Positions 6,357-63,181 of a stretch of DNA of 64,000 nt are shown here, in pieces. The notes beneath the pieces are model-generated. The model was not told the origin of the DNA. It did no database searches and worked only from the letters and a program-made list of their open reading frames with translations. Made by a program: the position numbers and the translations under genes. Each line of letters opens with the position of its first letter. Position 1 is the stretch's first letter. The stretch is from Gammaproteobacteria bacterium (GTDB lineage: Bacteria; Pseudomonadota; Gammaproteobacteria; Poriferisulfidales; Poriferisulfidaceae): positions 16,802 to 80,801 of the forward strand of contig JAPPLD010000027.1 of NCBI GenBank assembly GCA_028819565.1. Direction: 5' to 3'.

Positions 6357-7995
6357 GCACCGCCGACAGCAGTGTTCGAGTGTATTCGTGCTGCGGGTTC
6401 TGCAGGATCTCGACCGTGTCTCCCTGCTCGACGATCCGCCCCTCGTGCATGACCGCCATGCGGTGCGCCATCCAGGACACGACCGCGATGTTGTGCGTGA
6501 TGAACAGGTAGGTCAGGCCGTGTCGGTCCTGCAGATCCTGTAGCAGGTTCAGGATCTGGGCCTGAATGGTGACGTCCAACGCACTGGTCGGCTCGTCACA
6601 TACGATCAACCGCGGGTTGACCGCCAAGGCCCGGGCGATCGCGATGCGCTGACGCTGCCCGCCCGAGAATTCATGCGGGTAGCGGGTCTGGTGCTCGGGC
6701 TTCAGCCCGACCTGCAACAGTAATTCCTCGATCCGCTCGCGCCGCTCGACCGCATCTTGCGCCACGCCCAGGACCTGCATCCCCTCAGCGATGATGTCGC
6801 CGATGACCATGCGGGGGTTGAGGGACGAAAACGGGTCCTGGAAGACGATCTGCAGTTCCGACCGGAACGGAGCCATCTCGTGGGCTGAGCAATGGCTCAG
6901 GTCGTGCCCCCGGTAGTGAACGCTTCCCTGCGTGATCGGCAGCAAGCGGATCAGGCTCTTGCCGGTGGTCGTCTTGCCGCAGCCAGATTCCCCCACCAGG
7001 GCGAACGTCTCTCCTTCCCGCAAGGTGAACGACAGGCCGTCCACCGCCCGAACATGACCGACGACACGGCGGAATACGCCGCGACGGATCGGGAAATGGA
7101 TGCGCAGGTCCTCGACTTCCAGCAGAGGGTCGGAGCTTGGTCGCGAGGCCGGTTCGACCGCCTGTTCGTCGGAATCGGATCCGTTGCCGTGCAGCCGCAG
7201 TCCCCGCTTGGAGATGTTCGGCAGCGCCGCGAACAGGTTGCGACTGTATTCGTGCTGGGGATTCTCGAAAAATTCCCCTGCGGATTCTGCCTCCACGATC
7301 CTTCCATGCTGCATGATGGCAACCGCATCCGCCATGCTCTTCGCCACCGCCAAGTCGTGCGTGATGAACAGCATCGCCATGCCCAGGTCGCGCTGCAGTT
7401 CGCGCAGCAGCTCCAGCACCTGCGCCTGGATGGTGACGTCCAGCGCCGTGGTCGGCTCGTCCGCGATCAGCAGTTCGGGTTCCGCCGCCAGCGCCCCCGC
7501 GATCATCACCCGCTGCTTCATGCCGCCGGACAGTTGGTGCGGATACTCGTACAAGCGCCGCCGGGGCTCCGGGACACGCACCGCGTCGAGCAACTCCAGC
7601 GCGCGGGCCAGGCTTGCCTTCCGCGACAGCCCCCGGTGCCGGCGCAACGGCTCGCAGATCTGCTGACCCACCGTCATTACCGGGTTGAGCGACATCATCG
7701 GTTCCTGGAAGATCATGCCGATCGTGCCACCGCGAATCCCCCGCATCTGCACCTCCGGCAACTCCAGCAAATCCCGCCCATTCAGCCGGATTTCGCCGGT
7801 TTCGATTCGGGCCGCTTCCGGAAGCAGCCGCATCACGCTCAGCGCCGTCACCGACTTGCCGCTGCCGGACTCGCCGAGCAGGGCGAACGTGCCCTGTTTC
7901 GGGATGGAGAAGCTGACGTCCTCGACCGCCACCTCTCGGTCCGGTCCGGTACCGAACGCGATCTGCAGGTGGTTGACCTCAAGCAGCGTACTCAT
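6346..7995 (-). CDS. yejF: peptide ABC transporter ATP-binding protein with duplicated ATPase domains (YejF-like)
   Basis: Two Walker A/ABC-signature/Walker B sets (GESGSGKS...LSGGMKQR; GESGCGKTT...FSGGQRQR). Start taken at [10 protein letters not shown], overlapping the yejE stop. Confidence 0.85.
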
Positions 7996-9362
7996 CGCTT
8001 CACCCTCGGGTCGAAGGCATCGCGCACCGCATCCGACAGCAGGTTCGCGAACAATACCAGGGCAAACATGAACACGAACGAAGCCGTCAGCGACCACCAC
8101 ACCGGAGGCTCGCGCGACATCTCAAGCCGCGCACTGTTGATCATGTTCCCCCAGCTGTTCATGGACGGGTCAACCCCGATGTCGACATACGACAACACCG
8201 CCTCGGCCAGCACCAGGCCGCTGAAGTCCAGCACCACCGTGATCAGCACGATATGCATGACGTTCGGAAGGATGTGCCGCATCAGGATGCGCGGCCCCGA
8301 CACCCCGAATGCCACTGCGGCCTGGATGTATTCATGCTCCCGCAACTTGAGAGATTCGCCGCGCAACAGCCGGCAAAGCCCGGTCCAGCTGGTCAGGCCC
8401 AGGATCATGCACAGGAACAGCAACCGCAGGTCTGCACGCTCCGCCAGGCTCGCATACTCGTCGGCATGGGCGTTCAGGTAGACATGCAGGGACAGGATCG
8501 CCGCAGCGATCAGCAACACGCCGGGAATCGAGTTCAGCGTGATGTAGATGTACTGGATGACGTCGTCCACCCAACCCCGGTAGTAACCGGCCGTGATGCC
8601 AAGCGCAATCGCGAACGGCAACATGATCAGGGTCGTCAGGGTGCCGATCAGCACCCCGGTGCGGATGCTCTTCAGGGTCTGGTAAAGCACGTCTTCGCCG
8701 ACCTTGTCGGTGCCGAACACGTGGTAGGCCCCGGCCAACTGCGTGACGATCCCGATCAGCATCAGGATCAGCAACACGGTGACCGCTACGGACCGCCAGG
8801 GAATCGCGGCCTCTCCCTCTGCCCGGGGTTGCGCGCCCCGCAGCCGACGGGCCAGCCGGACGCCCAACAACAGGAGGGCCCAGACCCCCGCTCCCAACAA
8901 GGCTCCGCGCAGGATCCGGACCGTGATGTCCCAACCGCGTTCCTGTTCCGGGTCCGCAAGATGGGCACCCGCGTACTCGAGCCGGGGATAGACCCGGATC
9001 CGCCCCTGCGGCGTCTCCCGGGTCTCCTTGCTGTGCGCGTGATAGGCGAATGGCGCGGAGTAAGTCCGCTCAACCTGGGTACGCAAGGGCCCGGCCAAGA
9101 TGTCGAACACGCTCAAGATCTCGTTTGAATACTCCACCTGGGCGCCCGGCTGTTCCAGGCGCGGATGGAAATGCAGCGAATCCAGGATCGCGATGGCCGC
9201 GAAGAAACCCAGCGCCACCACCGACACCGCGCCGCCGCGCCGGGTCATGACAGATCGCCAGGCATGCCGCAGGTGCGGCGTACGCAGAACGAAACCCACG
9301 TACAGCGCCACCCCTGCCAGCAGCAGGTAGAGAAAGAAATCGGTCAGCAGGACGACCCACAT
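7992..9362 (-). CDS. yejE: ABC transporter permease (YejE/DppC-like), extended N-terminal region
   Basis: C-terminal DppC-type permease core. The chosen ATG overlaps the yejB stop (TGA/ATG). The 673-aa ORF N-terminus is rejected. Confidence 0.75.
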   Translation of the reverse strand: MWVVLLTDFFLYLLLAGVALYVGFVLRTPHLRHAWRSVMTRRGGAVSVVALGFFAAIAILDSLHFHPRLEQPGAQVEYSNEILSVFDILAGPLRTQVERTYSAPFAYHAHSKETRETPQGRIRVYPRLEYAGAHLADPEQERGWDITVRILRGALLGAGVWALLLLGVRLARRLRGAQPRAEGEAAIPWRSVAVTVLLILMLIGIVTQLAGAYHVFGTDKVGEDVLYQTLKSIRTGVLIGTLTTLIMLPFAIALGITAGYYRGWVDDVIQYIYITLNSIPGVLLIAAAILSLHVYLNAHADEYASLAERADLRLLFLCMILGLTSWTGLCRLLRGESLKLREHEYIQAAVAFGVSGPRILMRHILPNVMHIVLITVVLDFSGLVLAEAVLSYVDIGVDPSMNSWGNMINSARLEMSREPPVWWSLTASFVFMFALVLFANLLSDAVRDAFDPRVKR

Positions 9363-49801: not shown

Positions 49802-50026
49802 ATGAGCGAAGAAACCCTAGTCAGACCGGCCGATGAAGAAGGCTACATCATCGCTTGGAGAGCCAAGTATCAATTCGAGACCGGGCAACTGGACGGCGAA
49901 ATGACCTATGGCGAGGCGACCCAGAAGTGCGCCGAACTGTGCGCTAAGGAACCCGAGAAAACCTTCTGGCCACAACGGGTCACAAGTGCCGAAGCCTCCT
50001 ACGGAAAATTCCACAAAGCGCACTGA
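49802..50026 (+). CDS. small hypothetical protein (74 aa)
   Basis: ORF only, no recognisable motif. Overlaps the proposed thpR 5' region if thpR starts upstream. Confidence 0.2.
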   Translation: MSEETLVRPADEEGYIIAWRAKYQFETGQLDGEMTYGEATQKCAELCAKEPEKTFWPQRVTSAEASYGKFHKAH

Positions 50027-50033
50027 TCCCAGC

Positions 50034-50573
50034 TTGCCGGACTCGCCGCAGCGACTGTTTTTTGCATTGCTGCCCGATGGGGCCGTGCGTAAACGGTTGC
50101 ATCAACTGCAGAAAGATCTGGAAAAGGCAGGCGGGCGCCCCGTGCCCGAGGAAAACCTGCATCTGACCCTGTTGTTCCTAGGCAATGTCGAAGCTGACAA
50201 GGTGGATGCCGTTCGCGACATCGCCGCGGGCATCGAAGGGAAACGATTTGACCTAGTGCTCGATACCCTCGGGGGATTCCGGCAGAACAATGCCCGTATC
50301 CTGTGGGTCGGCCCTTCCGAATCGCCCCCAGCACTCGGGGCCTTGCATCAATCGCTGCGTCGGCAGGTCAGGAAAATCGGCCTGCGCGTCGGAAAGGGGG
50401 TCTACCGCCCGCACGTGACCCTGGTTCGCAAGGCCGACCTGCGGAAAAAGTCACCGGAAGATCTGGAACCAGACATCCAGTGGACGGCGCACCGCCTCGC
50501 TTTGATTGCGTCGGAACTGCTACCTTCCGGTTCCTGCTATAAAACTCTCTTAGAGAAAAAACTTTCTGAATAA
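50034..50573 (+). CDS. thpR: RNA 2',3'-cyclic phosphodiesterase ThpR/LigT (2H phosphoesterase)
   Basis: Two H-x-T-x motifs (HLTLLFLG, HVTLVRK). Proposed TTG start; no in-frame ATG near the domain start. Confidence 0.65.
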   Translation: MPDSPQRLFFALLPDGAVRKRLHQLQKDLEKAGGRPVPEENLHLTLLFLGNVEADKVDAVRDIAAGIEGKRFDLVLDTLGGFRQNNARILWVGPSESPPALGALHQSLRRQVRKIGLRVGKGVYRPHVTLVRKADLRKKSPEDLEPDIQWTAHRLALIASELLPSGSCYKTLLEKKLSE

Positions 50574-50598
50574 ATTGAATTAGATCAGATTACTCTGA

Positions 50599-50632
50599 AG
50601 TCGGTGATTCTGTCTGGCCACATCAGACCGAC
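50599..50632. terminator. bidirectional hairpin between convergent thpR and the TonB-dependent receptor gene
   Basis: GTCGGT...ACCGAC with an inner GTCTG/CAGAC stem. Confidence 0.3.
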
Positions 50633-50712
50633 ACTAAAATTTGCCTTTGGCATGGAAGCCTCCTCCGGAGACTTCCAACTGGAATTACTTGCATGCGAAC
50701 CCGAGATTGCCC

Positions 50713-53313
50713 TTAGAACTCCAGCATAGCTCGCGCGTAGAGAAAGCGCCCATCGATTCCACCTGGGGCGAAGCGAGGGTACCTGCTTCCACGACCGGTC
50801 GCCCCCGGAGAGCGATCCGGGTGTTTGTCTAGAAAATTATCCGAGCCCAGTGTCAAACTGAAGCTGCCAATTTTTCGGGTGACGCTAATATCTGCCAACC
50901 CGTAGCCTTTGAAATCGGTCGAATCATACCAAGAATACCAGTCTCCAAAGTAGTTGTAGCGCAGCATGAGGCGCCAGTCGCCCATAGCATGGTTGGCGGT
51001 CAAACTGTAACGGGTATCCGGCACACTCTCTTCAATCCGTTTCTTGAGGCTGGCACTGAGATTGCTGGATTTGGTGACTTTGGTATCGGTGCGATTGTAG
51101 GAAACCAGAAAATCCGTATCGCCCATATTGCTCTCTACAGAGTATGTCATGACGATGTCGAAACCATCGGTCTTGGTGTCGAAGTCGTTCTCGAAAAACT
51201 GGAGTGATGAGAAACTCTTCTTCAATTCATCTACGTCATCTTGGGACACATTGTTCTGGTCATATCGGTCGTAAGTCTTCTGGCAAGCCTTCGCTTTATC
51301 GTTATCAGCTTTTTCCATACTAGCCACCAAGGCTTGTCTGGCCATTGCGCCCACCGGACACGTCAAATCGATCGTATCGGACAAGAAAATTCGATCCTCC
51401 ACGTCAGTTCTGAAATAGTCCACAGTAATGTTCAAGGCATCCAAGTCGAAGACAAACCCCAAGCTAAAACTGTCGGATTCTTCCGAGTCGAGAGTGCGAC
51501 CTCCGAATTTTCTGGCCGTCGCACTATCCGGGGACACGACCCCGGTCTGAACAGAAACCGGAGGGACTTGTTGCGGATCGAAAATCGTGCTGATCTTCGA
51601 TGCATTCTGCTGACCTGGCGACGGCGCCCGGAATCCTGTGCCTAGCGAAGCGCGAAAAGCAAGAGGATCCGCCACCTGAACCCGGGTAGAAAGTTTGGCG
51701 TTTGTCGTGGTTCCGAAGTCGTCGAAATCCTCCCAGCGAATCGCCCCACCAACCGTCCAGTCCGGCAGGACGTCGGCTTCAAAGTCAATGTAGGTCGCGA
51801 TGTTTTCACGATCCCATTTGCCAGATGCCATCGGGCTAAAACCAGCGTAGCCATTCGAACCATTCGCAGCTTCATCTTTGTATTCGCCGACTCGCCAAGA
51901 TTCGACATCACCCGTGGTTACCTCAAATTCCTCCTCACGCCATTCCAAACCACCTGCGATGCTGAGGTCCGAGGCGAGCCCAACATCAGCCATGTATGAG
52001 AGATCAATGTTGAGGTTGGTTTCCGTCTGAGTATATTCGCCCACATCAAACGAGGTGGGGCTGTCAGGCCCCCAAGTGGCATTCACCGTGTTGCGGATGA
52101 AATAATCGGCCTCATTCTCGCCAACACTGGCACTAATGTCATAGGACAAGCCACTGCCAATCGAATGCGCAACGCCCTTCATACCTACAACCACCGAGTA
52201 GTCTGTAACATCGGCCCCAAACCTAGGTTGAAATCCACCCGGGAACCATTCATGAAAAGAAAAGCAACTGTCATCGGCCTTCAACTGTTCATAGATCGTT
52301 GGTAGCCCAGAATCTTGAATCGACAAGTCGGTATAGGCGCTGCAACCCATTCCAAAAAGCAAAACTTCGCTAGTGTTCGAATTCTTTACGAACACCCCTC
52401 TCCTATTTTTCGGGCTGCGATAGAAAAATCCGGTGTCAACCTCCCGGCTCGCGTAGTTGCCGAAAGCGTAGACCCTCCGGTCCGCATCCAAGTCTATTCC
52501 CAAGTTGACAAAGGTCTTGATGTTGTCGTCAATGTCCGGGCTACCCCAGACATGCGCAGGGTCGGCAATGTGAGTGTTACCTGCCGCCTCCATGGCTCTC
52601 ACATCATTCCGCAGGTCGCTGCGGTCGGTCGGAGAGTCCGAACTGTATTCAAAACTGAAATTGGCGAAGCCGTGCTCGGTCAAGGGCAGACCCACGTTTC
52701 CGGATACTCGGATTTTGTCTTCGTCGCCATCCTCTCCGTATGCGCCATAGCGAGCCTCCAAGGTAGCCCCCTCCGAATCGTCCTTGAGAACAAAATTGAC
52801 CACCCCGGCAATGGCGTCCGAACCGTACTGGGCCGCCGCCCCGTCGCGCAACACTTCCACTTGCTTCAGGGCAATGCCGGGAATCACGGAAACATCCGGG
52901 CCTTGGGCGCCATCCGAACGACCGTCCGAGATCCACGTGATGGTTGCGCCGCGATGACGGCGCTTGCCGTTGACCAACACCAGCGTGTGATCCGGAGCCA
53001 AACCTCTCATATTGATCGGGTTTTGCAAAGCCGCCTCGTCACGTCCCGGCTGTATGCTCACATGATACGAAGGCACAACCGTACGCAGCATGTAATTCAT
53101 GTCGCCGGAACCCTGATCCATAAGGCTCTCGCTGTCGATCACATCAATGGGAACCGAGGAGTCCATGACCGAGCGAGGCTGGGCACGGGTTCCAATGACA
53201 ACCAGTTCCTCGACCTCTTCCTCTTCGGCCAGAACGACTGACGGCCAAGTTCCGGCAAGTAACAAGGACAAGCCGAAAATCGTGGGCAGTGAAATGCTTT
53301 TACCTAATCTCAT
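50713..53313 (-). CDS. TonB-dependent outer-membrane receptor
   Basis: Signal peptide, plug/TonB-box region, 22-strand barrel with terminal aromatic (...ARAMLEF), AGGGAGG RBS. GC content is visibly lower than the flanking genes. Confidence 0.9.
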   Translation of the reverse strand: MRLGKSISLPTIFGLSLLLAGTWPSVVLAEEEEVEELVVIGTRAQPRSVMDSSVPIDVIDSESLMDQGSGDMNYMLRTVVPSYHVSIQPGRDEAALQNPINMRGLAPDHTLVLVNGKRRHRGATITWISDGRSDGAQGPDVSVIPGIALKQVEVLRDGAAAQYGSDAIAGVVNFVLKDDSEGATLEARYGAYGEDGDEDKIRVSGNVGLPLTEHGFANFSFEYSSDSPTDRSDLRNDVRAMEAAGNTHIADPAHVWGSPDIDDNIKTFVNLGIDLDADRRVYAFGNYASREVDTGFFYRSPKNRRGVFVKNSNTSEVLLFGMGCSAYTDLSIQDSGLPTIYEQLKADDSCFSFHEWFPGGFQPRFGADVTDYSVVVGMKGVAHSIGSGLSYDISASVGENEADYFIRNTVNATWGPDSPTSFDVGEYTQTETNLNIDLSYMADVGLASDLSIAGGLEWREEEFEVTTGDVESWRVGEYKDEAANGSNGYAGFSPMASGKWDRENIATYIDFEADVLPDWTVGGAIRWEDFDDFGTTTNAKLSTRVQVADPLAFRASLGTGFRAPSPGQQNASKISTIFDPQQVPPVSVQTGVVSPDSATARKFGGRTLDSEESDSFSLGFVFDLDALNITVDYFRTDVEDRIFLSDTIDLTCPVGAMARQALVASMEKADNDKAKACQKTYDRYDQNNVSQDDVDELKKSFSSLQFFENDFDTKTDGFDIVMTYSVESNMGDTDFLVSYNRTDTKVTKSSNLSASLKKRIEESVPDTRYSLTANHAMGDWRLMLRYNYFGDWYSWYDSTDFKGYGLADISVTRKIGSFSLTLGSDNFLDKHPDRSPGATGRGSRYPRFAPGGIDGRFLYARAMLEF

Positions 53314-53520
53314 GCTGGGCCTCCCTGATCAGGTTTGACTTTGTATTGTATGACAAGGAGGAAGAGGGACAACAGCCGAGTGGTCAAAACGGCAACACTC
53401 TCTCCGCCAAAAACCGTGACACCAGCGCAGGTCTTCCTTCATCACAGAAAACCGATAGCGGCCCTGCATTACAATTGCCGATTGTGCCTTCGGGCAGTGC
53501 CATGCGAGGTTGATCTATAA

Positions 53521-54192
53521 ATGCCGGTCATATTGTTCGCGGTGCTGGTGGTCGTAGTTTTCACGCTGCTCGGCACCGGTGTTCACTACTACGAGTACGG
53601 AAGCCTGAGCTGGGTCTTTCTCCTGATGGCCTTGTTCCTGTCAACCAACCTGCTGATTGCCGGGTGGGAGATGTGCCTGTTTCTCCGCCGGGATCACATC
53701 AAAAGCCGTAGTGAGTATTGGCGCGACCGGCAAAAGGAGACCGGCCGGGCACCCGGCATTGAATTTCTGACTTCCCGGGTCTCCTGGCGGAACATGCTGT
53801 CCCCGACGTTCTGGGCGGATGTCTGGGCCGCCTATTCCTTATACGATGACGCCTATACAGACCGGGGTACGTTTGGCTTCAACGCCGACACCGGCAATGG
53901 CTTCTTCACGCCGATTCCAACCTTAATCCTGTACGCGGCATTGACGACCGGGTTTATGCCCGCCGTCTACACGGGCATTCTCGGCCTTGCCCTGTTCTGG
54001 CAATGGACATACGTCTCCTCGCTCTACTGGGTCAGCTTCCTTATTGCCGGTCGACAGCACCGCATTAGCAAGCGGGAAGTGTACGCGTATGTCTTCTCGC
54101 CCAACGCCTTCTGGATCGCACTCCCGATTTTGGGACTGTACATGTCCGCCCGCTTGATCATTGACGGCAACTACAGTGTCCTAGGCTTCTGA
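53521..54192 (+). CDS. polytopic membrane protein, possibly EXPERA/EBP-like (sterol-isomerase fold), weak
   Basis: 4-5 TM helices. Motif-level resemblance (W..Y..YDD.Y.DR; Y.Y.F..NAFWI.LP) to emopamil-binding-protein-like proteins. Confidence 0.4.
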   Translation: MPVILFAVLVVVVFTLLGTGVHYYEYGSLSWVFLLMALFLSTNLLIAGWEMCLFLRRDHIKSRSEYWRDRQKETGRAPGIEFLTSRVSWRNMLSPTFWADVWAAYSLYDDAYTDRGTFGFNADTGNGFFTPIPTLILYAALTTGFMPAVYTGILGLALFWQWTYVSSLYWVSFLIAGRQHRISKREVYAYVFSPNAFWIALPILGLYMSARLIIDGNYSVLGF

Positions 54193-54207
54193 CAACAGGA
54201 GAACATC

Positions 54208-55392
54208 ATGCGAAAGCTCGCCATCGGCCTGCTTAGCCTGTTTCGGAAGGCTTCTCTTTTCGTCTGGAGACTGCGCGGCAAGACGGAGGACGATGTGGCC
54301 GCGCAACGGGTTGCCAGCGGCCAATCCTGGAGCGAGTTCTGCGACTCCCTGAAGGCGGCAGGAGCCGCACTGCAGTTCCCGGGGACGCCTCGGGACTCGT
54401 TCAATCAAGCGGAAGGCTACCGGTACCTGAGCCGGGTCGCGCGGGCCGGCCTGATGGCTTTCATCGAACACGCTGACGCGAAAGCCCCCGTGCTGCATCG
54501 GGTCGTCAACGAAACCACCAAGATCGGTGCAGACAATCCCGACAATTTCTACCAGACAGCCGCGCTGGACGGTCGTTACGAATACAAGATTACTGGACGG
54601 CGCAACAGCATCGCCTACCTGAGCTTCGGCACCCAGTCCGGTCACTATGGTGAAGGCGGCGGCCTGCCTCCCACCGGGCACATCGAGTCCGACCAGATCG
54701 AAATGGACGAAGACGGGCGCTTCGAACTGATCCTCAGCAGCAAGCCGCAGGACGGAAACTGGCTCCCGATGGCCCCCGAGACCGGCACCCTGGTGGTACG
54801 CCAGACTTTCCTCGACCGGGATGCGGAGATTCCAGCGGAATTAAGTATCGAGCGAATTAACTGCCCCAAGCACGAGCTCCGCCCTTCTCCCCTCACTCCC
54901 CTGAAACTGGACAAAGGATTGAAAAAAGTCGGGGCGTTGACTGCCGGTGCACCTCTATTGTTCTCCAAGTGGGCACGCGATTTCCAGAAACACAGTAATG
55001 AACTGCCGCAATTCGACCCGGAGGTGTCACTGGCCGCTGGGGGCGATCCCAACATCACCTACTACCACAGCCATTGGGCCATTGGGCAGGATGAGGCCCT
55101 CGTGATAGAAGTCACGCCACCGGAATGCGAATACTGGAACTTTCAATTGAACAATTACTGGATGGAGTCCCTGGACTATCGGCATCACCGAATTCACATT
55201 AATAAACACCTCGCCCATTACGAAGACGACCATTCCGTGCGACTGATCGTGGCGCACAAGGACCCCGGACACCCCAACTGGATCGAAACCGCCGGACACA
55301 CCTCCGGCACCATGTGCTTCCGGTGGGTACGAGCCAAGGAATCTCCGCAGCCAAAAACCCGGCTGGTCAAGTTGAGCAGCCTGCGGGGTTGA
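54208..55392 (+). CDS. DUF1214-like domain protein
   Basis: C-terminal region with the ...ECEYWNFQLNNYW... pattern reminiscent of DUF1214. No clear signal peptide. Confidence 0.4.
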   Translation: MRKLAIGLLSLFRKASLFVWRLRGKTEDDVAAQRVASGQSWSEFCDSLKAAGAALQFPGTPRDSFNQAEGYRYLSRVARAGLMAFIEHADAKAPVLHRVVNETTKIGADNPDNFYQTAALDGRYEYKITGRRNSIAYLSFGTQSGHYGEGGGLPPTGHIESDQIEMDEDGRFELILSSKPQDGNWLPMAPETGTLVVRQTFLDRDAEIPAELSIERINCPKHELRPSPLTPLKLDKGLKKVGALTAGAPLLFSKWARDFQKHSNELPQFDPEVSLAAGGDPNITYYHSHWAIGQDEALVIEVTPPECEYWNFQLNNYWMESLDYRHHRIHINKHLAHYEDDHSVRLIVAHKDPGHPNWIETAGHTSGTMCFRWVRAKESPQPKTRLVKLSSLRG

Positions 55393-55411
55393 CCGCGTAC
55401 GAGGCACGGCC

Positions 55412-56662
55412 ATGGCCAAAACGGACTTCACGACGTCCACGGACTACGAGCACCCCTATCGCCCCCTTCCGATCCGGGTTTTCAACTCTATCGGAAAGTC
55501 GGCCAGACTGTCTGGCCCTCTGGATGTCGAGAGACTCCTTGATGCCGCAAGACGGAAGACCGGGTTGTCGGATTTTGGCGGCGATGGACACCTCCAGGCC
55601 CTGGAGGTTCTCGTGAAATCGGCCAATGAAGAAGCCGACCTGACCCCGACAGGCCGGCTAATACAGAAATTCCGGCTCACCGGCGTGCTGGTTCAGCGTC
55701 TTCGGATCGAAGCGTTGCTCAAGAAGCATACGGAGATTGAGGACATCGGCCTCGGCACCATCGTCATGGTCGCCGGACTACCGCGCAGCGGAACCACGTT
55801 GCTGCATCGTCTGCTGCACTCCAATCCTGATATCCGGGGCGTATCCGGCGTGGAAGCACTGGAGCCGGTGCCGGCAGGCGGCGCGAGAAGGCATGAAGCG
55901 ACCGCCCGCAAACTGCGCGCGGTTCTCGCGAAACATGCGATTTCCTATTTGTCGCCACAGTTCGCAGCCATTCATCCGATCGACCCCAGCGAGCCGGAAG
56001 AAGACGTCATGCTGCTCGACCTGAATTTCATGAGCCAAGCCCCGGAAGCCATCATGCACGTCCCGTCTTATTCCGGCTGGCTGGAAGATCAGGATCATAC
56101 GCAGACCTACAAATATTTCCGCAAGATCGTGAAGATCCTGTGCTGGCAGTGCCCCAGCAAAAACTGGGTACTGAAGACGCCGCACCACATGGAGTATCTC
56201 GACGTGTTCCTGAAGGTCTTCCCGAATGCGACGGTCGTGCAGACCCATCGGGACCCGCGGAAGACATTGCCTTCCTTCTGCAGCATGGTGGCCCACAACC
56301 GCGCCATTTTCAGCGACTGCGTGGATCCGAGGGAAATCGCCCGGCACTGGATCCGGAAAACGCGCCGGATGGTCGAACTGACCATGGAAGTCCGGGCCGG
56401 AGCGGATACCGACCGGTTTGTCGACGTGTCGTATTACGATTTAATAAAAGACCCTCTTGGCCAGCTTCGGCAAGTCCATCGAAAGGCGGGGATCGACTTT
56501 GATGACGAAGCGACGCAGATTGCTGAAAAATATGTGAATAGAAACCCGAAAAACCGCTTCGGCAAACATGTCTACCAGCTAAGCGACTTCGGGTTGGACG
56601 AGAAAACGATCGAGGAGAATTTCTCCTCGTACCGGGCAAAACACGAGATTCCATTCGAGTAG
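55412..56662 (+). CDS. sulfotransferase family protein (PAPS-dependent)
   Basis: 5'-PSB loop LPRSGTTLL and a 3'-PB-like region downstream. Confidence 0.7.
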   Translation: MAKTDFTTSTDYEHPYRPLPIRVFNSIGKSARLSGPLDVERLLDAARRKTGLSDFGGDGHLQALEVLVKSANEEADLTPTGRLIQKFRLTGVLVQRLRIEALLKKHTEIEDIGLGTIVMVAGLPRSGTTLLHRLLHSNPDIRGVSGVEALEPVPAGGARRHEATARKLRAVLAKHAISYLSPQFAAIHPIDPSEPEEDVMLLDLNFMSQAPEAIMHVPSYSGWLEDQDHTQTYKYFRKIVKILCWQCPSKNWVLKTPHHMEYLDVFLKVFPNATVVQTHRDPRKTLPSFCSMVAHNRAIFSDCVDPREIARHWIRKTRRMVELTMEVRAGADTDRFVDVSYYDLIKDPLGQLRQVHRKAGIDFDDEATQIAEKYVNRNPKNRFGKHVYQLSDFGLDEKTIEENFSSYRAKHEIPFE

Positions 56663-56676
56663 ACCCAGGGGCTCGC

Positions 56677-57684
56677 ATGCGACAGGAAACTCGGCAGATC
56701 GGCGACGGCACTTTCGCCAGCGCCGTCATCAGTGCCATTCGGGATCTCGGGAAACCAAAAGCATCGGGAATCAACCCGGTGCCGGACGGTATCCGGATCG
56801 ATGGCAAAACCTGCCTGGTGACCGGGGCCAACAGCGGCCTGGGCAGGGCCGCCGCAATCGAACTCGCAAGGCGGGGCGGGAACATGATCCTGGCCTGCCG
56901 GCCCGGGCACGTTGACACCTGCGATGAAATCAAGCGGCTATCCGGCTCCGAAACCGTGGAAATGATGGGAGTAGATTTCGCCGATCTCGAATCCGTGCAC
57001 CGTTTCTGCGACCGCCTGAGCCAGCGTGAGGTTCGCATCGACATCGCGCTGATGAACGCCGGATTGATGCCGCGCAGGGCGATAAAGACCCCGCAAGGGT
57101 ATGAAGTGATGTTCGCGGTCCATTTCCTGTCCAATCGGGTGATGGTCGACCGATGGCTGCAAGACGGGGTGCTCCGCCCTGCCAGCCAAACCGGCAAGAT
57201 CCCGCGCATCATCTTTGTTTCCTCCGAGTCGCACCGGTCTTCCCATGCCATCGATTTCGAGCGCTTCGGTGCATTCGCCGATTACGGTATGAAAGAGGGC
57301 TTGAAACACTATGGTCTGAGCAAACTGATCCTGTGCACGTTCGCCACCGAGCTTTCCCGGCGCCTCAACCTCGGCAACAACGTGGAGGTCGCAGTGCACG
57401 CGATATGCCCCGGAGGGGTTGCCACCAATATCACCAGAGATGCACCCCTGCTGCTGAAACCGATTATCAACCCGGCGTTGAGGCTGCTCTTCCAGACTCC
57501 GGAAAAAGCCATCGGGCCTGCCATTTACCTGTGCTGCGCGGAAGCGGCGGACAAGGCCTCGGGAATGTACCTGCACTTGATGCAAAGGAAATCCTTCTCG
57601 CCGGCCGCCTCGGATCCGAAAAACGGACTCCGGCTGTGGGAAGCCAGCCAGGTTTTAGTGGCAAAATCGCGAGAATCCGTCTGA
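56677..57684 (+). CDS. SDR family oxidoreductase, retinol-dehydrogenase-like
   Basis: GKTCLVTGANSGLGRAAAIELARRGG NAD(P) motif, NAG, and a Y-x3-K active site. Confidence 0.8.
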   Translation: MRQETRQIGDGTFASAVISAIRDLGKPKASGINPVPDGIRIDGKTCLVTGANSGLGRAAAIELARRGGNMILACRPGHVDTCDEIKRLSGSETVEMMGVDFADLESVHRFCDRLSQREVRIDIALMNAGLMPRRAIKTPQGYEVMFAVHFLSNRVMVDRWLQDGVLRPASQTGKIPRIIFVSSESHRSSHAIDFERFGAFADYGMKEGLKHYGLSKLILCTFATELSRRLNLGNNVEVAVHAICPGGVATNITRDAPLLLKPIINPALRLLFQTPEKAIGPAIYLCCAEAADKASGMYLHLMQRKSFSPAASDPKNGLRLWEASQVLVAKSRESV

Positions 57685-57699
57685 CTCTTCCGTCGAAAC

Positions 57700-58710
57700 A
57701 TGCCAAACGCACTCTCTAAAACCGCCAGGCACGTGTGGGGCCTTCTCACCCCGAAACCGATGGCAGAAAAGGTCGACATGTCCGGTCGGAACGTCATCGT
57801 GACTGGCGCAAGTCCCCATTCCCTCGGCTATGAAACCGCCAGAATCCTTGCAAGTTGGGGTGCATCGGTCGTCGCCACCAGTCGGCGGCATGTCACAGCG
57901 GCGGAAAAGTGCCTGAAGGACGACCTGCGCAAGAACGGCGTCGACGAGAACAATATCGCGGTCCGCCCGTTGGACCTGTGCGACAGTGACAGCGTCAGTG
58001 ATTTTGCAACGTGGTACCGGGAAAACTATGACGGAAAACTGCATGTACTGGTCAACAACGCGGGCATTTTGAAGGACGTCCTCAATCCATGGAAAAAGAT
58101 ACCCCTGACCGAGGACGGCTTCGAGATCCACTGGCGCACCAACTATCTCGGAGCCTTCCATCTGACGAGCCTGCTGTTGCCGCTCCTGAAGCAAAGCGGG
58201 CTGGAAAGCGGCGATGCGCGGGTCGTCAACGTATCTTCCCACCTGCACGACCAGGGCAGGAACGAGGATCTGTTCAACGACGAGAAAATCTATCATTCCT
58301 TGAGCGCGTACGGACGATCAAAGCTGGCGATGGTTCACTTTTCGCGCGAGATCGAAAGGCGGTTCGCAGAAGACTACAACCTGCACTCGATGGCCGTGCA
58401 TCCGGGCTCCGTCGACACCAACATGACGCGGGTGGAGATGCCGGAAGGAAAGATCGGAAACGCCTGGCGCTGGATCGGTTCCGCGATGGCACCCCTGATC
58501 ATGCTGCACCGAACGCATGGCGCGCAAACCACTGTGATGTGCGCCAGCCAGTCTCCCCTGCAAGGCGGACAGTATTATGTGCGTTGCGAGATCGCGGAAT
58601 CGACCGACGAAAGCAAGGACGAGATCGTATCGAAGCAGTTATGGGAACAATCGGAAGCATGGGTTGAAACGCTCAAGAAGCCCGACGGAGGCAAGCATGA
58701 GTCAATTTGA
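57700..58710 (+). CDS. SDR family oxidoreductase, RDH11-14/WWOX-like
   Basis: VTGASPHSLGY..., VNNAG, TEDGFEIHWRTNYLGAFHLTSLLLPLLK, YGRSKLA, HPGSVDTNM. Confidence 0.8.
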   Translation: MPNALSKTARHVWGLLTPKPMAEKVDMSGRNVIVTGASPHSLGYETARILASWGASVVATSRRHVTAAEKCLKDDLRKNGVDENNIAVRPLDLCDSDSVSDFATWYRENYDGKLHVLVNNAGILKDVLNPWKKIPLTEDGFEIHWRTNYLGAFHLTSLLLPLLKQSGLESGDARVVNVSSHLHDQGRNEDLFNDEKIYHSLSAYGRSKLAMVHFSREIERRFAEDYNLHSMAVHPGSVDTNMTRVEMPEGKIGNAWRWIGSAMAPLIMLHRTHGAQTTVMCASQSPLQGGQYYVRCEIAESTDESKDEIVSKQLWEQSEAWVETLKKPDGGKHESI

Positions 58711-59173
58711 AGTCCGCACCGACCCCATTCAGATCGACGCGCCCATCGACCTTGTCTGGGATGTCTTGACCGAAGTCGAGAAATACGGAGAGTGGAATCC
58801 GTTCACGCCACAGGCTCAAACGGATTTCAAGATCGGGTCTCCCGCGCACCTGCGGGTCCGGATGGGCCCGACCAAGATGAAGATCACCGAAACCGTGTGC
58901 GCGTTCGAAAAGCCCCAGCTGATTGCCTGGACCAAGACGTTCGGAGCCCGCTGGTTCCTGGTTGCGGTGCGGCGGCAAATCCTGGAGCCGGTGGGTGACA
59001 CCCGTTGCACCTATCACAACACGGATCAACTGACCGGCTTGATGGCTCCGGTCGTCTTGCTGCTGAACGGGGGCTACATGCGCCGTGGCTTCAACGACGT
59101 GGCGGAAGGATTGAAACATTATGCGGAAGCGATGTATGAACGAAAGGGAGCCGAAGAGGCTCCTCATCCCTGA
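58697..59173 (+). CDS. SRPBCC (START/Bet v1-like) ligand-binding protein
   Basis: MSQFEVRTDPIQIDAPIDLVWDVLTEVEKYGEWNP typical SRPBCC opening. Confidence 0.6.
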   Translation: MSQFEVRTDPIQIDAPIDLVWDVLTEVEKYGEWNPFTPQAQTDFKIGSPAHLRVRMGPTKMKITETVCAFEKPQLIAWTKTFGARWFLVAVRRQILEPVGDTRCTYHNTDQLTGLMAPVVLLLNGGYMRRGFNDVAEGLKHYAEAMYERKGAEEAPHP

Positions 59174-59202
59174 AACCGGTTGTAATGATTGCGGGGGCCG
59201 CA
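59075..59202. repeat. direct repeat copy A: 3' end of the SRPBCC gene, downstream spacer, and a 12-13 nt tRNA-fMet 3' fragment (TTGCGGGGGC)
   Basis: Approximately 80% identical to 61590-61715. Confidence 0.65.
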
Positions 59203-59296
59203 AACCCCAAAACCGATATTTGTTCGAAGCCCCGGTTCAGAACAGCTAGACCCTTTGACCCGGAGCCGTCATGCGGGATCCTCCCGGTCGGTTGCC

Positions 59297-61504
59297 CTAA
59301 TCCTGCGGCAGGCTTTCGTCCGGTCCCGTTCCGAAATGATCCGCAAACATGTATCGATACAGATCAATGATCAATTCCTGTTCGTGCTCCTCCAGCCAGC
59401 ACCGGGCGCTAGGGGTGAGCAACATCGTGCGGCATGGTTCGTCTGCAACCACCGTCGTCTTGGCGTCCACCGTCGGGTCGGCAAGCCAAATTACATCGCC
59501 GGGACTGCACTGGCGGAGCCGCATGCCTGCGGAATCGTGAACGGAAGCGCGGCCCGATAACAGCAATTGCAGGCCTTCGCATGGGATGTCCGGGCCCGCA
59601 AGAACCTCCTCAGCGGCATAGTCCCGGGAAGTCAGCCACGGCCGAAGCGCCTCGATGAGATCCTCGAAGCGAACTTGCCGCTCCAGTTGGCGCTCCAGAT
59701 CCTCGGAGGCTCGCTCCAGCAGCGAAGTTCGTCTCTGCTCCACCATGGCCGCATCCGCCCTCCATGCCGCGATGATAAGTTCTTCGCAACGCTCCAAGCC
59801 GAGATCGGCGTCCGACTCCAGCCACAATTTCGCAAATACCGCAGGAGCCACGTTCCGCTCCAGGCCGAACCGAAGCTTCTCGGACAGGCCGCTCAAAACC
59901 ACCTGCACGCCCGCCGCGTTCGCGCGCCGCACGGACCGCGCCACGACGTTCACCGCCGAAAAATCGAATCCGGAGACATGGCTGAAGTCGATCATCAGGC
60001 AGGAAGCCCGTGACGGACCCTTTAGGGACTTCTTGAGACGGTCCGCCAAGGTGCCCACGCTGCCGAAGAAGATGTATCCCTGAAGCTGGTACGCCTGCAC
60101 CCGGTCGCCCTCCGCCAGGAGGATGGCGCGGTCGGGAATGGAACGGGCCTTGTTGCTCCGGCGCTCGCGCACGGTGAAGTGCGAGGCAATCGGATTCACG
60201 CGGCTGAGGCGCACGGCGAAGAACACGAGGGTGGCCACCGCGCCGGCGCCCATGCCCTCAAGCAGACCGAAGAAGACGATGACGACGAAGATCAGGAGGA
60301 GGATGGCGTATTCCGACCCGGGCAGGCGTCTGCGGTTTCTCACCAGCCCCTCGTCCAGCATGCCGAGGCCGACGAAGACCAGCATGGCACCGACGAACGC
60401 GGTCGGCACCCATTCCAGCATGCCGTCGCCCAGCAGAAGCACCGCCCCGACGACGCAGGCCGCGATCACCCCGGTCAGCCGGGTGGTAGCGTGGAACAGC
60501 TTGCTGCGGAGCGATGCAGGGACAATCACCGTCGCCGCCATCCCCCCGCCAAGCCCGGCGACGATGCTGGCCACGCCCGTCGTCTGGAACTCACGGTCCC
60601 AGACCAGGTCCACATCCGTGGCGACTTCCAGCCCGGCGATATTCATGATGACGCAGACCAGGACGATCGCGACCAGCGTCAGCATGTTCGGCAACTGCCC
60701 GGCGATCGCGGACCAATCCACGTGCGCGAGATCGGTCGGCCACACGGCCGGCCATAGACTTCCCTCGGCCGTACTCGTGAGCAGGAGCCCTGCCGCCCTA
60801 GCCTCGTCCCCGGAAAGACCAAGGACGGAAAGCGCGAGATGGTAGGCACCAATCGTGAGTACAACACTCATCGGCAGAATCAAGGGATTTTTCCAGCGCC
60901 TTATGGCACCATACAAGGCGATCCCGTAGGCGAGGCCTGGCAGCCACGTCCACAGCGTGGTCGGCTCCAGAAGCGCTGACGCCGTTCTCCCATCCGAACT
61001 CGCACTCATCAGAGACATGGCTGCCAAACAGACAGCCCCTCCGATGCCAGCCACGAATCCCCCCGCCACCGGATACGGAATGAAACGCAACAAGTTGGCG
61101 AGCCGGAACCGTCCGATCAGGAGACAGCACACCCCCGTCGCGACGGCGCTGATGATCAGCGCACACACCGTGGTCACAAAGAGCTTCTCGGCATCCACTT
61201 CCATCGTCGCCGCAATGGTCGCCATCACGAACACGGGCAGGGAGGACAGGCCTGCGATGGCGCCCCGGTACCCTCCCAAAAGCGCGAAGATCAGGCATGC
61301 GGCAAAGTTTCCGAACAGCACCAAGCCGACGCCCTGGGAAGAATGCGGAGCCAAGGCTCCAGAGAAGATGAAAGTCCCATAGGCCACCTGAATGGCCAAC
61401 AAGGCGAGACCCGAGCTGATTCCGACCGACACCGCCGGAAGCAGTACCGAGGATGGAATCTCGGCCCGAAGTCCGTCGGCAAGGTGTCGCAGTGGCGATT
61501 TCAT
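59297..61504 (-). CDS. SulP/SLC26 family anion transporter fused to STAS and cyclic-nucleotide-binding (CAP-like) domains
   Basis: N-terminal SulP TM core, STAS (IDFSHVSGFDFSAV...VVLSGL), and a C-terminal beta-roll (LLLSGRASVHD...CSPGDVIW). Confidence 0.8.
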   Translation of the reverse strand: MKSPLRHLADGLRAEIPSSVLLPAVSVGISSGLALLAIQVAYGTFIFSGALAPHSSQGVGLVLFGNFAACLIFALLGGYRGAIAGLSSLPVFVMATIAATMEVDAEKLFVTTVCALIISAVATGVCCLLIGRFRLANLLRFIPYPVAGGFVAGIGGAVCLAAMSLMSASSDGRTASALLEPTTLWTWLPGLAYGIALYGAIRRWKNPLILPMSVVLTIGAYHLALSVLGLSGDEARAAGLLLTSTAEGSLWPAVWPTDLAHVDWSAIAGQLPNMLTLVAIVLVCVIMNIAGLEVATDVDLVWDREFQTTGVASIVAGLGGGMAATVIVPASLRSKLFHATTRLTGVIAACVVGAVLLLGDGMLEWVPTAFVGAMLVFVGLGMLDEGLVRNRRRLPGSEYAILLLIFVVIVFFGLLEGMGAGAVATLVFFAVRLSRVNPIASHFTVRERRSNKARSIPDRAILLAEGDRVQAYQLQGYIFFGSVGTLADRLKKSLKGPSRASCLMIDFSHVSGFDFSAVNVVARSVRRANAAGVQVVLSGLSEKLRFGLERNVAPAVFAKLWLESDADLGLERCEELIIAAWRADAAMVEQRRTSLLERASEDLERQLERQVRFEDLIEALRPWLTSRDYAAEEVLAGPDIPCEGLQLLLSGRASVHDSAGMRLRQCSPGDVIWLADPTVDAKTTVVADEPCRTMLLTPSARCWLEEHEQELIIDLYRYMFADHFGTGPDESLPQD

Positions 61505-61589
61505 CCTATGGGCTTTGCCGCGTCAGCGGTGACATCGGGAAACTATGTATTGGGATGGATTGTAACCTGCACCGCTACCGGCAATCGGC

Positions 61590-61779
<190 letters not shown>

Positions 61780-61822
61780 TCGCTTGGTCAGAATTTGATT
61801 TTAACATATAGCCTACAATCAC

Positions 61823-63181
61823 TTGGACACGTACCCCGAACCCATGTCCACCTCTCTCGTCTATACCGTCGCCGAAATCAACCAGCAGGTCCGAACGCTC
61901 TTGCTGGAAAACTTTTCGGAAGTCATCGTGCGCGGGGAGATCAGCGGCCTGAAGCAATACGCTTCCGGCCACTGGTACTTCACCCTGAAGGACCCGGACT
62001 CGGAAATTCGCTGCGCCATGTTCCGCAACCGGAACCAGCGGGTCTCGTTCGTGCCCCAAGACGGAGACGCCGTCCGAGTGCGGGCCCGGGTCGATCTTTA
62101 TGTGCAGCGAGGCAGTTACCAACTAGTCATCGAAGACATGGAACCGGAGGGCCGCGGCGAATTGTTGCGGCGTCTGGAGGAATTGAAGGCTCGGCTCAGA
62201 GACGAAGGGCTGTTCGACCTGCAACGGAAGCAGGCCCTGCCCCCCTACCCCATGATGATCGGCGTAATCACCTCGGCCGACGGTGCGGCGTTGCGGGACG
62301 TGGCGCGAACCCTGCGGCGGCGCTGGCCAGTCGCCCGGCTGTGCGTCTACCCGTCGCGAGTCCAAGGAGAAGAGGCTCCGGCCTCGCTGGTCGAAGCCCT
62401 CGCTCTCGCTTCCCGGGATAACCGTTGCGATGTGTTGATCCTGGCACGCGGAGGCGGCAGTTTTGAAGACCTTCTGGCTTTCAGCGATGAGACGGTCGTG
62501 CGGGCGGTCGCCGCCTGCCCGATTCCGCTGATTTCCGGAATCGGTCACGAGACCGACACTTCCCTGGTCGATTTCGCTGCCGACGTCCGGGCAGCCACCC
62601 CGACTGCGGCAGCGGAACAAGCAAGCCCGGATGCGACCGCGCTCAAACGGCAAGGTCTGAGATTGCTTGGGCGACTCCATAGTTTTCTCGGCCTTCGCCT
62701 GAAACAGGTTCATAGAGAACTAGACACTCAAGACCATCGACTTGAGTTGGCCCACCCGGCCGCCCGAATCAGGGGACACCAGCAGCGACTGGATGAGACA
62801 TCCGAGCGCCTGGTCCAAATGCTCCACCAACGCATGGAGCGACGGCAGCACCAGTTGGCCCTGTCCCACCGCCGCCTGCTCGCCTGCTCGCCAAAACCGC
62901 GTCTGGCCAGATTGGAACAGGCAGTCCAGCAATGCCGATGGCGAATCAATGCGGCAACGCAGAACTTGCACCAGACCTTGCGCACCCGACTGGAGCAAGC
63001 AAGCGGAACCCTTGAAGCAGTCAGTCCGCTGCGTACCCTTGAACGCGGCTATGCGATCGCGACCCTGAAGACCCCATCCGGGCCTGAATTGATTCGGAAG
63101 ACCGGCCAAACTCGTGTCGGTGATACTTTCGACCTGCAGGTTTCTGACGGCTCGATTTCGGCGGAGGTGACCGAAACCTAA
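61823..63181 (+). CDS. xseA: exodeoxyribonuclease VII large subunit
   Basis: N-terminal OB-fold (VRGEISGLKQYASGHWYFTLKD) and the XseA catalytic region. Confidence 0.9.
   Translation: MDTYPEPMSTSLVYTVAEINQQVRTLLLENFSEVIVRGEISGLKQYASGHWYFTLKDPDSEIRCAMFRNRNQRVSFVPQDGDAVRVRARVDLYVQRGSYQLVIEDMEPEGRGELLRRLEELKARLRDEGLFDLQRKQALPPYPMMIGVITSADGAALRDVARTLRRRWPVARLCVYPSRVQGEEAPASLVEALALASRDNRCDVLILARGGGSFEDLLAFSDETVVRAVAACPIPLISGIGHETDTSLVDFAADVRAATPTAAAEQASPDATALKRQGLRLLGRLHSFLGLRLKQVHRELDTQDHRLELAHPAARIRGHQQRLDETSERLVQMLHQRMERRQHQLALSHRRLLACSPKPRLARLEQAVQQCRWRINAATQNLHQTLRTRLEQASGTLEAVSPLRTLERGYAIATLKTPSGPELIRKTGQTRVGDTFDLQVSDGSISAEVTET

Follow-up and report, generated by a model that had tools for sequence, protein, structure and literature searches.

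A six-gene operon of a putative sponge symbiont encoding an EBP-like membrane protein and an Stf1-type sulfotransferase: possible remodelling and sulfation of sterol-type lipids

We analyzed a stretch of 64,000 nucleotides from a gammaproteobacterial genome (assembly GCA_028819565.1, contig JAPPLD010000027.1, positions 16,802 to 80,801 of the forward strand; hereafter the window, whose numbering is used for all coordinates), and in it an operon of six genes at 53521-59173. All six lie on the plus strand, with gaps of 14-19 nt and one 14-nt overlap, and they encode an EBP-like membrane protein, a DUF1214-like protein, an Stf1-type sulfotransferase, two short-chain dehydrogenases (SDR1 and SDR2), and a small SRPBCC/START-like protein. 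We lean, by a modest measure, toward the reading that the substrate of the operon is a polycyclic lipid of the sterol type, located in the envelope of a sponge-symbiont cell, which the encoded proteins would remodel and sulfate. A pathway for sterol-like lipids had been proposed in an earlier annotation made from the DNA letters alone (the original prediction), and it gained strong support from genomic context: relatives of the EBP-like protein lie in sterol clusters, and steroid-type genes flank the operon in acidobacteria. We assign the window to Candidatus Porisulfidus, gammaproteobacteria that live with sponges and oxidise sulfur, whose genomes are the closest named ones. An identical membrane protein is present in GCA_028824105.1 and in contigs of metagenome series whose names point to sponge studies.

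The same six genes in the same order were found in four species of Acidobacteriota (L042, L055, L063, and L088; loci are cited by our own numbers) and in one other gammaproteobacterium (L047). The membrane proteins are 57-60% identical to that of the window and the DUF1214-like proteins 81-82%, with values of 60-72% for the remaining proteins. In Bryobacterales, the operon is preceded by FA_hydroxylase, sulfatase, ERG4_ERG24, Rieske plus KshA_C, and DUF1295 genes, and a KshA-like Rieske gene stands beside the acidobacterial copies. Within 10 kb on either side of the Porisulfidus operon, no ksh, hsa, kstD, or TetR gene was found. A rough neighbour-joining tree placed the acidobacterial operon copies as sister to the copies from sterol clusters. 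The 2.0-Mb gammaproteobacterial genome OY759361.1 carries two EBP-like paralogues, one at L035 within a sterol cluster and the other at L047 next to the sulfotransferase module, where it is convergent with a five-gene block of sulfotransferase, SDR, and SRPBCC genes. We found no description of the EBP-like family or of the six-gene operon in the searchable literature.

Judged by its gene content across these genomes, the operon is a composite of two sub-modules, one formed by the membrane protein, SDR2, and the SRPBCC protein and the other by the DUF1214-like protein, the sulfotransferase, and SDR1. Each also occurs alone, and going by their neighbours both are tied to steroid-type genes in independent lineages. 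The genes of the second sub-module are present in Porisulfidus L011-L014 and absent from L009, L015, L017, and L025. The short operon, with only the membrane protein, SDR2, and SRPBCC genes, was found in L009, L015, L017, L025, and L036, and L016 has the membrane protein and SDR2 only. Conversely, Acidimicrobiia (L091) and Chloroflexi (L092) encode the DUF1214-like protein, the sulfotransferase, and an SDR without the membrane protein. At L092 (GCA_026710655.1, 9001-15250), these three genes are followed by an alpha/beta-hydrolase esterase and a monooxygenase resembling flavin-containing monooxygenases (Baeyer-Villiger type), a pairing that is typical of ketone cleavage.

Fold and genomic context of the EBP-like membrane protein

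The membrane protein gave no match to Pfam even at E = 10, and the NCBIfam scan was also empty. Among 51 diverse members of its family, EXPERA (PF05241) was the commonest Pfam match below threshold (6 members, best E 0.0029). We modelled the protein with AlphaFold2 from 33 homologues; the model had five long helices, with a predicted local distance difference test score of 89.9 and a predicted template-modelling score of 0.85. We searched this model against 350,542 chains of the PDB, and the only matches with a probability of at least 0.99 were two entries of human EBP, 8w0r_A (E 0.013, probability 1.00) and 6oht_A (template-modelling scores 0.55/0.59, probability 0.99); the next-best match had a probability of 0.11. 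The model thus has the multi-helix membrane fold of EBP. The assignment to the EXPERA/EBP type made in the original prediction is borne out by this fold, EBP being the sole confident match in the PDB, and by the sub-threshold PF05241 matches of the family.

An alignment of the family profile with human EBP by hhalign (E 2e-4; the query sequence was confirmed to be identical to 6oht_A) paired W102, Y105, D109, and Y112 with W101, Y104, D108, and Y111 of EBP, and the nearly invariant N195 and the invariant W198 with N193 and W196. By mutagenesis, the catalytic residues of EBP are H76, E80, E122, T126, N193, and W196, and its activity requires N193 and W196. Within its helices, the family keeps six polar positions invariant or nearly so: E50, D109, D123, N126, N195, and W198.

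The window protein and human EBP (3-beta-hydroxysteroid delta-8,delta-7 isomerase; 6OHT, 8W0R) are thus alike in length (223 and 230 aa), in their five long helices, in the motifs W-x-x-Y-x-x-x-D-x-x-Y and N-x-x-W, which align, and in the context of sterol biosynthesis that surrounds the family. They differ in that the similarity of the window protein stays under every curated threshold and that the acidic residues E50, D109, and D123 belong to the family itself; the family is also mostly bacterial, occurs mostly in metagenome-assembled genomes (MAGs) that are apparently host-associated, and has a few eukaryotic relatives. By predicted fold and by context the protein is EBP-like, although it fails the curated sequence test and its family has no Pfam model; it may be a sterol double-bond isomerase or a subunit that binds sterol.

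A scan of one genome per species revealed 272 relatives. The best 80 of these 272 (53-64% identity) were all from uncultured MAGs, many of them with sponge- or coral-derived isolate names, and belonged to Nitrospirota, Gemmatimonadota, Acidobacteriota, Latescibacterota, Binatia, Chloroflexota, Rhodothermales, Nitrospinota, and several gammaproteobacterial orders. The relatives represent about ten lineages at the level of phylum or class, and an exhaustive profile search gave 346 clusters at 50% identity. The distribution looks like that of a marker of life inside a host. Distant members (P0267 and P0523; about 31-33% identity) were also found in the choanoflagellate Salpingoeca urceolata and, as a fragment, in the brown alga Scytosiphon promiscuus, and therefore the family is not purely bacterial.

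Gene neighbourhoods were compared at 90 loci by tblastn, with two query sets, the proteins encoded in the window and those of a sterol cluster from Nitrospira. In 15 of the 90 (12 of them distinct), the EBP-like gene lies no more than a few kb from genes for a squalene-epoxidase/oxidosqualene-cyclase (SE-OSC) fusion, CYP51, ERG4/24, and an SdmAB-like pair of a Rieske protein and a 3beta-hydroxysteroid dehydrogenase (3beta-HSD), and sterol methyltransferases are often present too. The 15 loci belong to Nitrospirales, Arenicellales, Chloroflexota, and two gammaproteobacterial lineages, and their gene arrangements vary. The genes listed for the 20-kb Nitrospira cluster include no canonical EXPERA gene. 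The EBP-like family occupies the isomerase position in sponge-symbiont sterol clusters that have so far been described without one.

The clusters of sponge symbionts described by Brown et al. (2023; PMC10070321) contain oxidosqualene cyclase, sdmAB-like genes, and sterol methyltransferases, with no mention of an isomerase, an EBP-like gene, or a sulfotransferase. They come from the same kind of organism, and the EBP-like family is embedded in clusters of this sort; the Porisulfidus locus differs in lacking their synthesis genes. There is precedent for finding sterol enzymes through their position in a sterol cluster in the C-24 reductase Bsr (PMC12004948).

The cluster of a Nitrospira sp. MAG (L001, 1-20735; also in L002, L003, and L020) is apparently complete. 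It encodes a 1131-aa SE-OSC fusion, CYP51, ERG4/24, a Rieske protein, 3beta-HSD, and two sterol methyltransferases, and in addition a flavin adenine dinucleotide (FAD)-binding protein of a kind for which C-24 reductase activity was recently shown, a GPP34-P450 fusion, a fatty-acid desaturase, and an MMPL transporter. At 6893-8281 of the same locus is the gene for an amine-oxidase/NAD_binding_8 flavoprotein that is 77-93% conserved and has homologues in L023, L032, L034, L044, and L058. In sterol clusters it is close to the EBP-like gene, as it is in loci of Gemmatimonadota and Acidobacteriota without the other sterol genes, and it is a second candidate for an unassigned sterol step.

Some distant members of the family adjoin genes of the limonene-epoxide hydrolase (LEH)/SnoaL, MaoC, and FadL types. 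One of them, 37% identical (L095, 10001-11176; JGI 3300005056), is followed immediately by an LEH/SnoaL-fold protein and preceded by a 3beta-HSD-like gene and a FadL/Toluene_X outer-membrane channel. This arrangement is reminiscent of the role that EBP has in cholesterol-epoxide hydrolase.

The sulfotransferase sub-module and its mycobacterial relatives

The sulfotransferase matched Sulfotransfer_3 (PF13469) with E 1e-44 (153.9 bits, cut-off 27), and its closest solved relative is STF1 of Mycobacterium tuberculosis H37Rv (2zq5_A; E 4e-55, residues 39-405). The loop PRSGTT at residues 124-129 aligns with VRTGTT of Stf1, the motif GLPRSGTTLLHRLL with GLVRTGTTALHRLL, and HRDPRKTLPS with HRPVETIMAS. 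We take the aligned loops to be the 5'-phosphosulfate-binding loop and the 3'-phosphate-binding R...S motif for 3'-phosphoadenosine 5'-phosphosulfate (PAPS), and dependence of the enzyme on PAPS is assumed from its family.

The DUF1214-like protein matched PF06742 with E 2.9e-8 (34.6 bits, cut-off 25) over residues 159-198 only, about 40 residues, and DUF1254 with E 0.11; over its full length it matched the uncharacterised structure 6ans_A (E 2e-120). Its top 120 clusters are all at least 78% identical and include members from Gammaproteobacteria, Bryobacterales, Chloroflexi, and Acidimicrobiia, a conservation far above that of its operon partners.

A related arrangement occurs in mycobacteria. 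In M. haemophilum, the gene order is hsd4B, kstD, hsaE, hsaG, hsaF, a gene for a 379-aa protein, SDR, Stf1, a small gene, and kshA. The DUF1214-like protein is 31% identical to the 379-aa protein over 334 aa (E 1e-37), and the sulfotransferase is 33% identical to the Stf1 orthologue over 376 aa (E 2e-63). In M. tuberculosis, the cholesterol gene cluster includes the corresponding genes Rv3531c, Rv3530c, and Rv3529c (PMC6429209), and KstR binds to its operator upstream of Rv3531c (PMC1995591). The original prediction did not recognise the gene set as a described operon. This stands for the set as a whole, but the DUF1214-like/sulfotransferase pair is homologous to the Rv3531c-Rv3529c (Stf1) operon.

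The two systems have in common that a DUF1214-like protein, an Stf1-type sulfotransferase, and an SDR are encoded together in a context of steroid metabolism. The order is DUF1214-like, SDR, sulfotransferase in mycobacteria and DUF1214-like, sulfotransferase, SDR in the window, and the SDRs are of different subfamilies. The mycobacterial operon also lacks the EBP-like, second SDR, and SRPBCC genes, and its neighbours are catabolic (kshA, hsaEFG, kstD), whereas biosynthetic or remodelling enzymes are found here. Since the homologues of Stf1 and Rv3531c in sponge symbionts are wired to sterol-type enzymes, a steroid acceptor is suggested for the mycobacterial proteins.

BtSULT, which we take to be the Bacteroides cholesterol sulfotransferase that sulfates host cholesterol, is presumably encoded together with PAPS-synthesis genes and without EBP-like, SDR, or SRPBCC genes. 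By family membership it resembles the window enzyme, both being bacterial Sulfotransfer_3 sulfotransferases, while the closest solved relative of the window enzyme is Stf1 instead. The gut-bacterial BtSULT serves as the reference enzyme in PMC13449962, from which its membership of Sulfotransfer_3 is taken.

Both dehydrogenases scored above the cut-off of adh_short, SDR1 with E 2e-17 (motifs TGANSGLG and YGLSK) and SDR2 with E 1e-25 (TGASPHSLG and YGRSK); these are the Rossmann TGxxxGxG and catalytic YxxxK motifs of classical SDRs. Their best NCBIfam match, PRK06197, was below its cut-off (171 bits for SDR2), and their nearest relatives are the PRK06197 group and protochlorophyllide reductases rather than known hydroxysteroid dehydrogenases. 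SDR1 travels with the DUF1214-like protein and the sulfotransferase, SDR2 with the membrane protein and the SRPBCC protein. The last of these matched Polyketide_cyc2 (E 4.6e-10; 40.4 bits, cut-off 27.4) and AHSA1 (E 1.5e-7; 32.1 bits, cut-off 22.1), and it is probably a lipid-binding carrier.

Proposed pathway and competing explanations

From gene structure, fold, homologies, and co-conservation, we infer a substrate, an order of reactions, and a sulfated product. The EBP-like protein would bind a membrane sterol and shift a double bond in its ring system, as EBP does from delta-8 to delta-7, or it may merely hold the sterol. The two SDRs could oxidise and then re-reduce a ring hydroxyl, whose configuration would perhaps be inverted via the ketone, and the SRPBCC protein might ferry the hydrophobic intermediate between the membrane and the soluble enzymes. 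The Stf1-type sulfotransferase, with its conserved DUF1214-like partner, would move sulfate from PAPS onto the hydroxyl. The receptor and the SulP transporter that border the operon could provide substrate and sulfate, though both are outside the conserved unit. Sponges are a typical source of steroid sulfates (PMC8145587), and thus both the substrate and the class of product are plausible in this habitat.

Several results weigh against this proposal. The window protein does not reach the gathering score of EXPERA (PF05241), and two profile searches with family alignments against all PDB sequences matched no solved structure apart from an ornithine transcarbamylase, which was judged a chance hit. 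The hhalign probability for human EBP is low (47%); the aligned block does not extend to H76 and E80 of EBP and the alignment has gaps around E122/T126, so that H76, E80, and E122 are not convincingly matched. Most loci with an EBP-like gene have no lipid genes nearby. A shared lipid context for the Gemmatimonadota copies was considered and rejected, their neighbours being a thymidine kinase, an Hsp70-like gene, and a HEAT-repeat protein. The 64-kb window has no sterol-synthesis gene, that is, no homologue of any of the eleven Nitrospira sterol-cluster genes tested. SDR1 aligns with the mycobacterial SDR over 92 aa only (27% identity) and appears to be no more than a distant relative of it, and the substrate of Stf1 itself is unknown (PMC13449962).

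Some of these points would suit a pathway with the same enzymology acting on another hydrophobic alcohol, for example a hopanoid, a retinoid or carotenoid derivative, a polyprenol, or a sponge terpenoid or meroterpenoid. The affinities of the two SDRs, the unknown substrate of Stf1, and the lack of sterol-synthesis genes in the window are all compatible with such a substrate, and the LEH/SnoaL, MaoC, and FadL-type neighbours of the distant members suit terpenoids and other alicyclic compounds no less than steroids. We nevertheless consider it fairly unlikely, given that it is sterol enzymes in particular that recur as neighbours (SE-OSC, CYP51, ERG4/24, sterol methyltransferases, and KshA-like Rieske proteins), that the sole structural match is a sterol isomerase, and that the mycobacterial homologues lie within the cholesterol regulon. 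The membrane protein could also be a non-enzymatic sensor or anchor that binds sterol, like the EXPERA proteins TMEM97 and TM6SF2, and that recruits the soluble enzymes to the membrane or reports host sterol. On this view the purpose of the operon would be to take up or tolerate sterol and not to synthesise a product. The unmatched H76, E80, and E122 agree with this, as do the receptor gene adjoining it in Porisulfidus and L086 and the solitary position of the gene, with no enzyme partner close by, in most genomes, many of them apparently sponge- or coral-derived. Such a role seems to us improbable in view of the clusters in which the gene fills the place of the missing delta-8/delta-7 isomerase among other ring-modifying enzymes, and of the polar set E50, D109, D123, N126, N195, and W198 within the helices, a pattern typical of a catalytic pocket. 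That the genes are mere neighbours with no shared function, assembled by chance or carried as mobile cargo in a variable region by a tRNA gene, is very unlikely. The region does border tRNA-Met and differ by insertions and deletions, as seen in the repeat-flanked SulP gene and in the variable presence of the DUF1214-like, sulfotransferase, and SDR1 genes among Porisulfidus species, but the six-gene order is shared by Gammaproteobacteria and Acidobacteriota at 57-82% protein identity, both sub-modules are kept separately in further phyla, the intergenic gaps are tight, and the region has no integrase or transposase.

A sterol-type substrate for the operon would also bear on the sterols of the host. 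Sponge sterols serve as biomarkers of early animals. That symbionts from many phyla have a putative sterol-modifying module in common is a further indication that the sterol profile of a sponge can be shaped in part by bacteria. A bolder version of the proposal, which we put forward as an unlikely speculation, is that the membrane protein represents a new branch of EBP/EXPERA and the missing bacterial delta-8/delta-7 isomerase, spread horizontally among sponge and coral symbionts of about ten lineages, and that the operon with its Stf1-type module makes or reshapes halistanol-type sulfated sterols. If true, some of the classic steroid-sulfate chemistry of sponges would be the work of bacteria, and a steroid would be indicated as the substrate of mycobacterial Stf1, which has long been unknown.

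Layout of the locus and neighbouring genes

The gene content and order at 50713-59173 were as originally called, with a minus-strand receptor gene followed by the divergent set of six plus-strand genes (Table 1). The coordinates were as stated there, and every domain call for these seven genes was supported, by Pfam domains or, in the case of the membrane protein, by the fold.

Table 1. Features of the operon region, in window coordinates
Feature	Position	Strand	Basis or remarks
TonB-dependent outer-membrane receptor, 866 aa	50713-53313	-	Plug and barrel domains
Hypervariable part of the receptor (barrel and loops), GC minimum of the window	50525-52409		Nucleotide comparison with L006 and GC content
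Divergent intergenic region between receptor and operon, 207 nt	53314-53520		
EBP-like five-helix membrane protein, 223 aa	53521-54192	+	Predicted fold
DUF1214-like protein, 394 aa	54208-55392	+	PF06742
Stf1-type sulfotransferase, 416 aa	55412-56662	+	Sulfotransfer_3
SDR1, classical short-chain dehydrogenase, 335 aa	56677-57684	+	adh_short
SDR2, 336 aa	57700-58710	+	adh_short
SRPBCC/START-like small protein, 158 aa	58697-59173	+	Polyketide_cyc2; start overlaps the end of SDR2 by 14 nt
94-nt direct repeat, left copy	59105-59198	+	SRPBCC 3' end, hairpin, and 13-nt copy of the tRNA-Met 3' end
SulP/STAS anion transporter, 735 aa	59297-61504	-	Sulfate_transp and STAS domains; convergent with the operon
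94-nt direct repeat, right copy, 79% identical	61622-61715	+	Overlaps the tRNA-Met 3' end
tRNA-Met (CAT), ancestral right neighbour of the operon	61703-61779	-	

The intergenic region between the receptor and the operon had one weak sigma-70-like match, on the minus strand, no more than in shuffled sequence. Consensus scans for promoters (5 against 4.3 in shuffled sequence) and terminators (19 against 12.5) gave no usable signal. An Rfam scan of 50400-62000 found tRNA-Met only and no riboswitch that could name the ligand of the receptor, and neither an integrase nor a transposase was found in the region. In thpR (49908-50573), the longest open reading frame has 221 aa, with the phosphodiesterase model beginning only at residue 49 and the genes of relatives called at 143-179 aa, and the first 45 or so residues, basic and proline-rich, are probably not translated.

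The original prediction described the interval as a low-GC island. The dip in guanine-cytosine (GC) content is real, with 0.565 in the interval and 0.607 in the window, which is among the lowest 1.6% of 8.6-kb windows. It comes from the receptor gene (0.533; 0.513 in the barrel part), while the operon alone has 0.583, at the 15th percentile, and third-position GC is 0.72-0.76 in the operon, 0.77 in the neighbouring SulP gene, and 0.61 in the receptor. With an ordinary operon beside a low-GC receptor, the interval is not a single compositional island. The barrel part (about 50525-52409) is at most 70% identical at the nucleotide level to that of strain L006, with flanks at 97-99%, and the receptor protein is 64% identical to its L006 counterpart, all neighbours being 99-100% identical. 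Since the barrel part is both hypervariable and the GC minimum, the low GC marks a receptor cassette and not an island that bears the operon. The divergence of the barrel resembles the outcome of allelic replacement, or of diversifying selection acting on a receptor at the cell surface. A horizontally acquired island was also considered and rejected, only the receptor being low in GC, no integrase being present, and the frame of the locus being syntenic across Porisulfidus species, with variation confined to SulP and to the DUF1214-like, sulfotransferase, and SDR1 genes.

The receptor has Plug (PF07715) and barrel (PF00593, a 22-strand barrel domain) domains above their cut-offs, and it did not reach any substrate-specific NCBIfam model (best 83 bits, cut-off 583). 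It adjoins the membrane-protein gene only in Porisulfidus loci, and a full-length homologue (49% and 36% identity) lies near the sterol cluster of L086. The receptor beside a distant family member in L094 proved to be unrelated, which leaves L086 as the only true homologue and removes the receptor as a conserved partner. Its inclusion in the conserved gene set did not hold, as it accompanies the operon only in Porisulfidus and one other gammaproteobacterium. Judged by this distribution, the receptor is a lineage-specific neighbour outside the conserved module, with a possible role in substrate import.

Across Porisulfidus species, the conserved frame consists of thpR, the receptor, the membrane protein, further genes up to SRPBCC, tRNA-Met, and xseA. 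The SulP gene is absent from L009, L010, L017, and L025 and from every operon copy outside Porisulfidus. The tRNA-associated repeat noticed at the right edge is a real direct repeat of 94 nt, and it flanks the SulP gene, not the operon; each copy comprises a hairpin together with the final 25 SRPBCC codons and 13 nt from the tRNA-Met 3' end. In L009 and L017, which lack SulP, tRNA-Met starts 13 nt past the SRPBCC stop codon. This junction and the repeats on both sides of the gene indicate that SulP was inserted at the tRNA gene, with duplication. SulP is thus a Porisulfidus-specific neighbour outside the conserved module, and a role in sulfate supply is possible.

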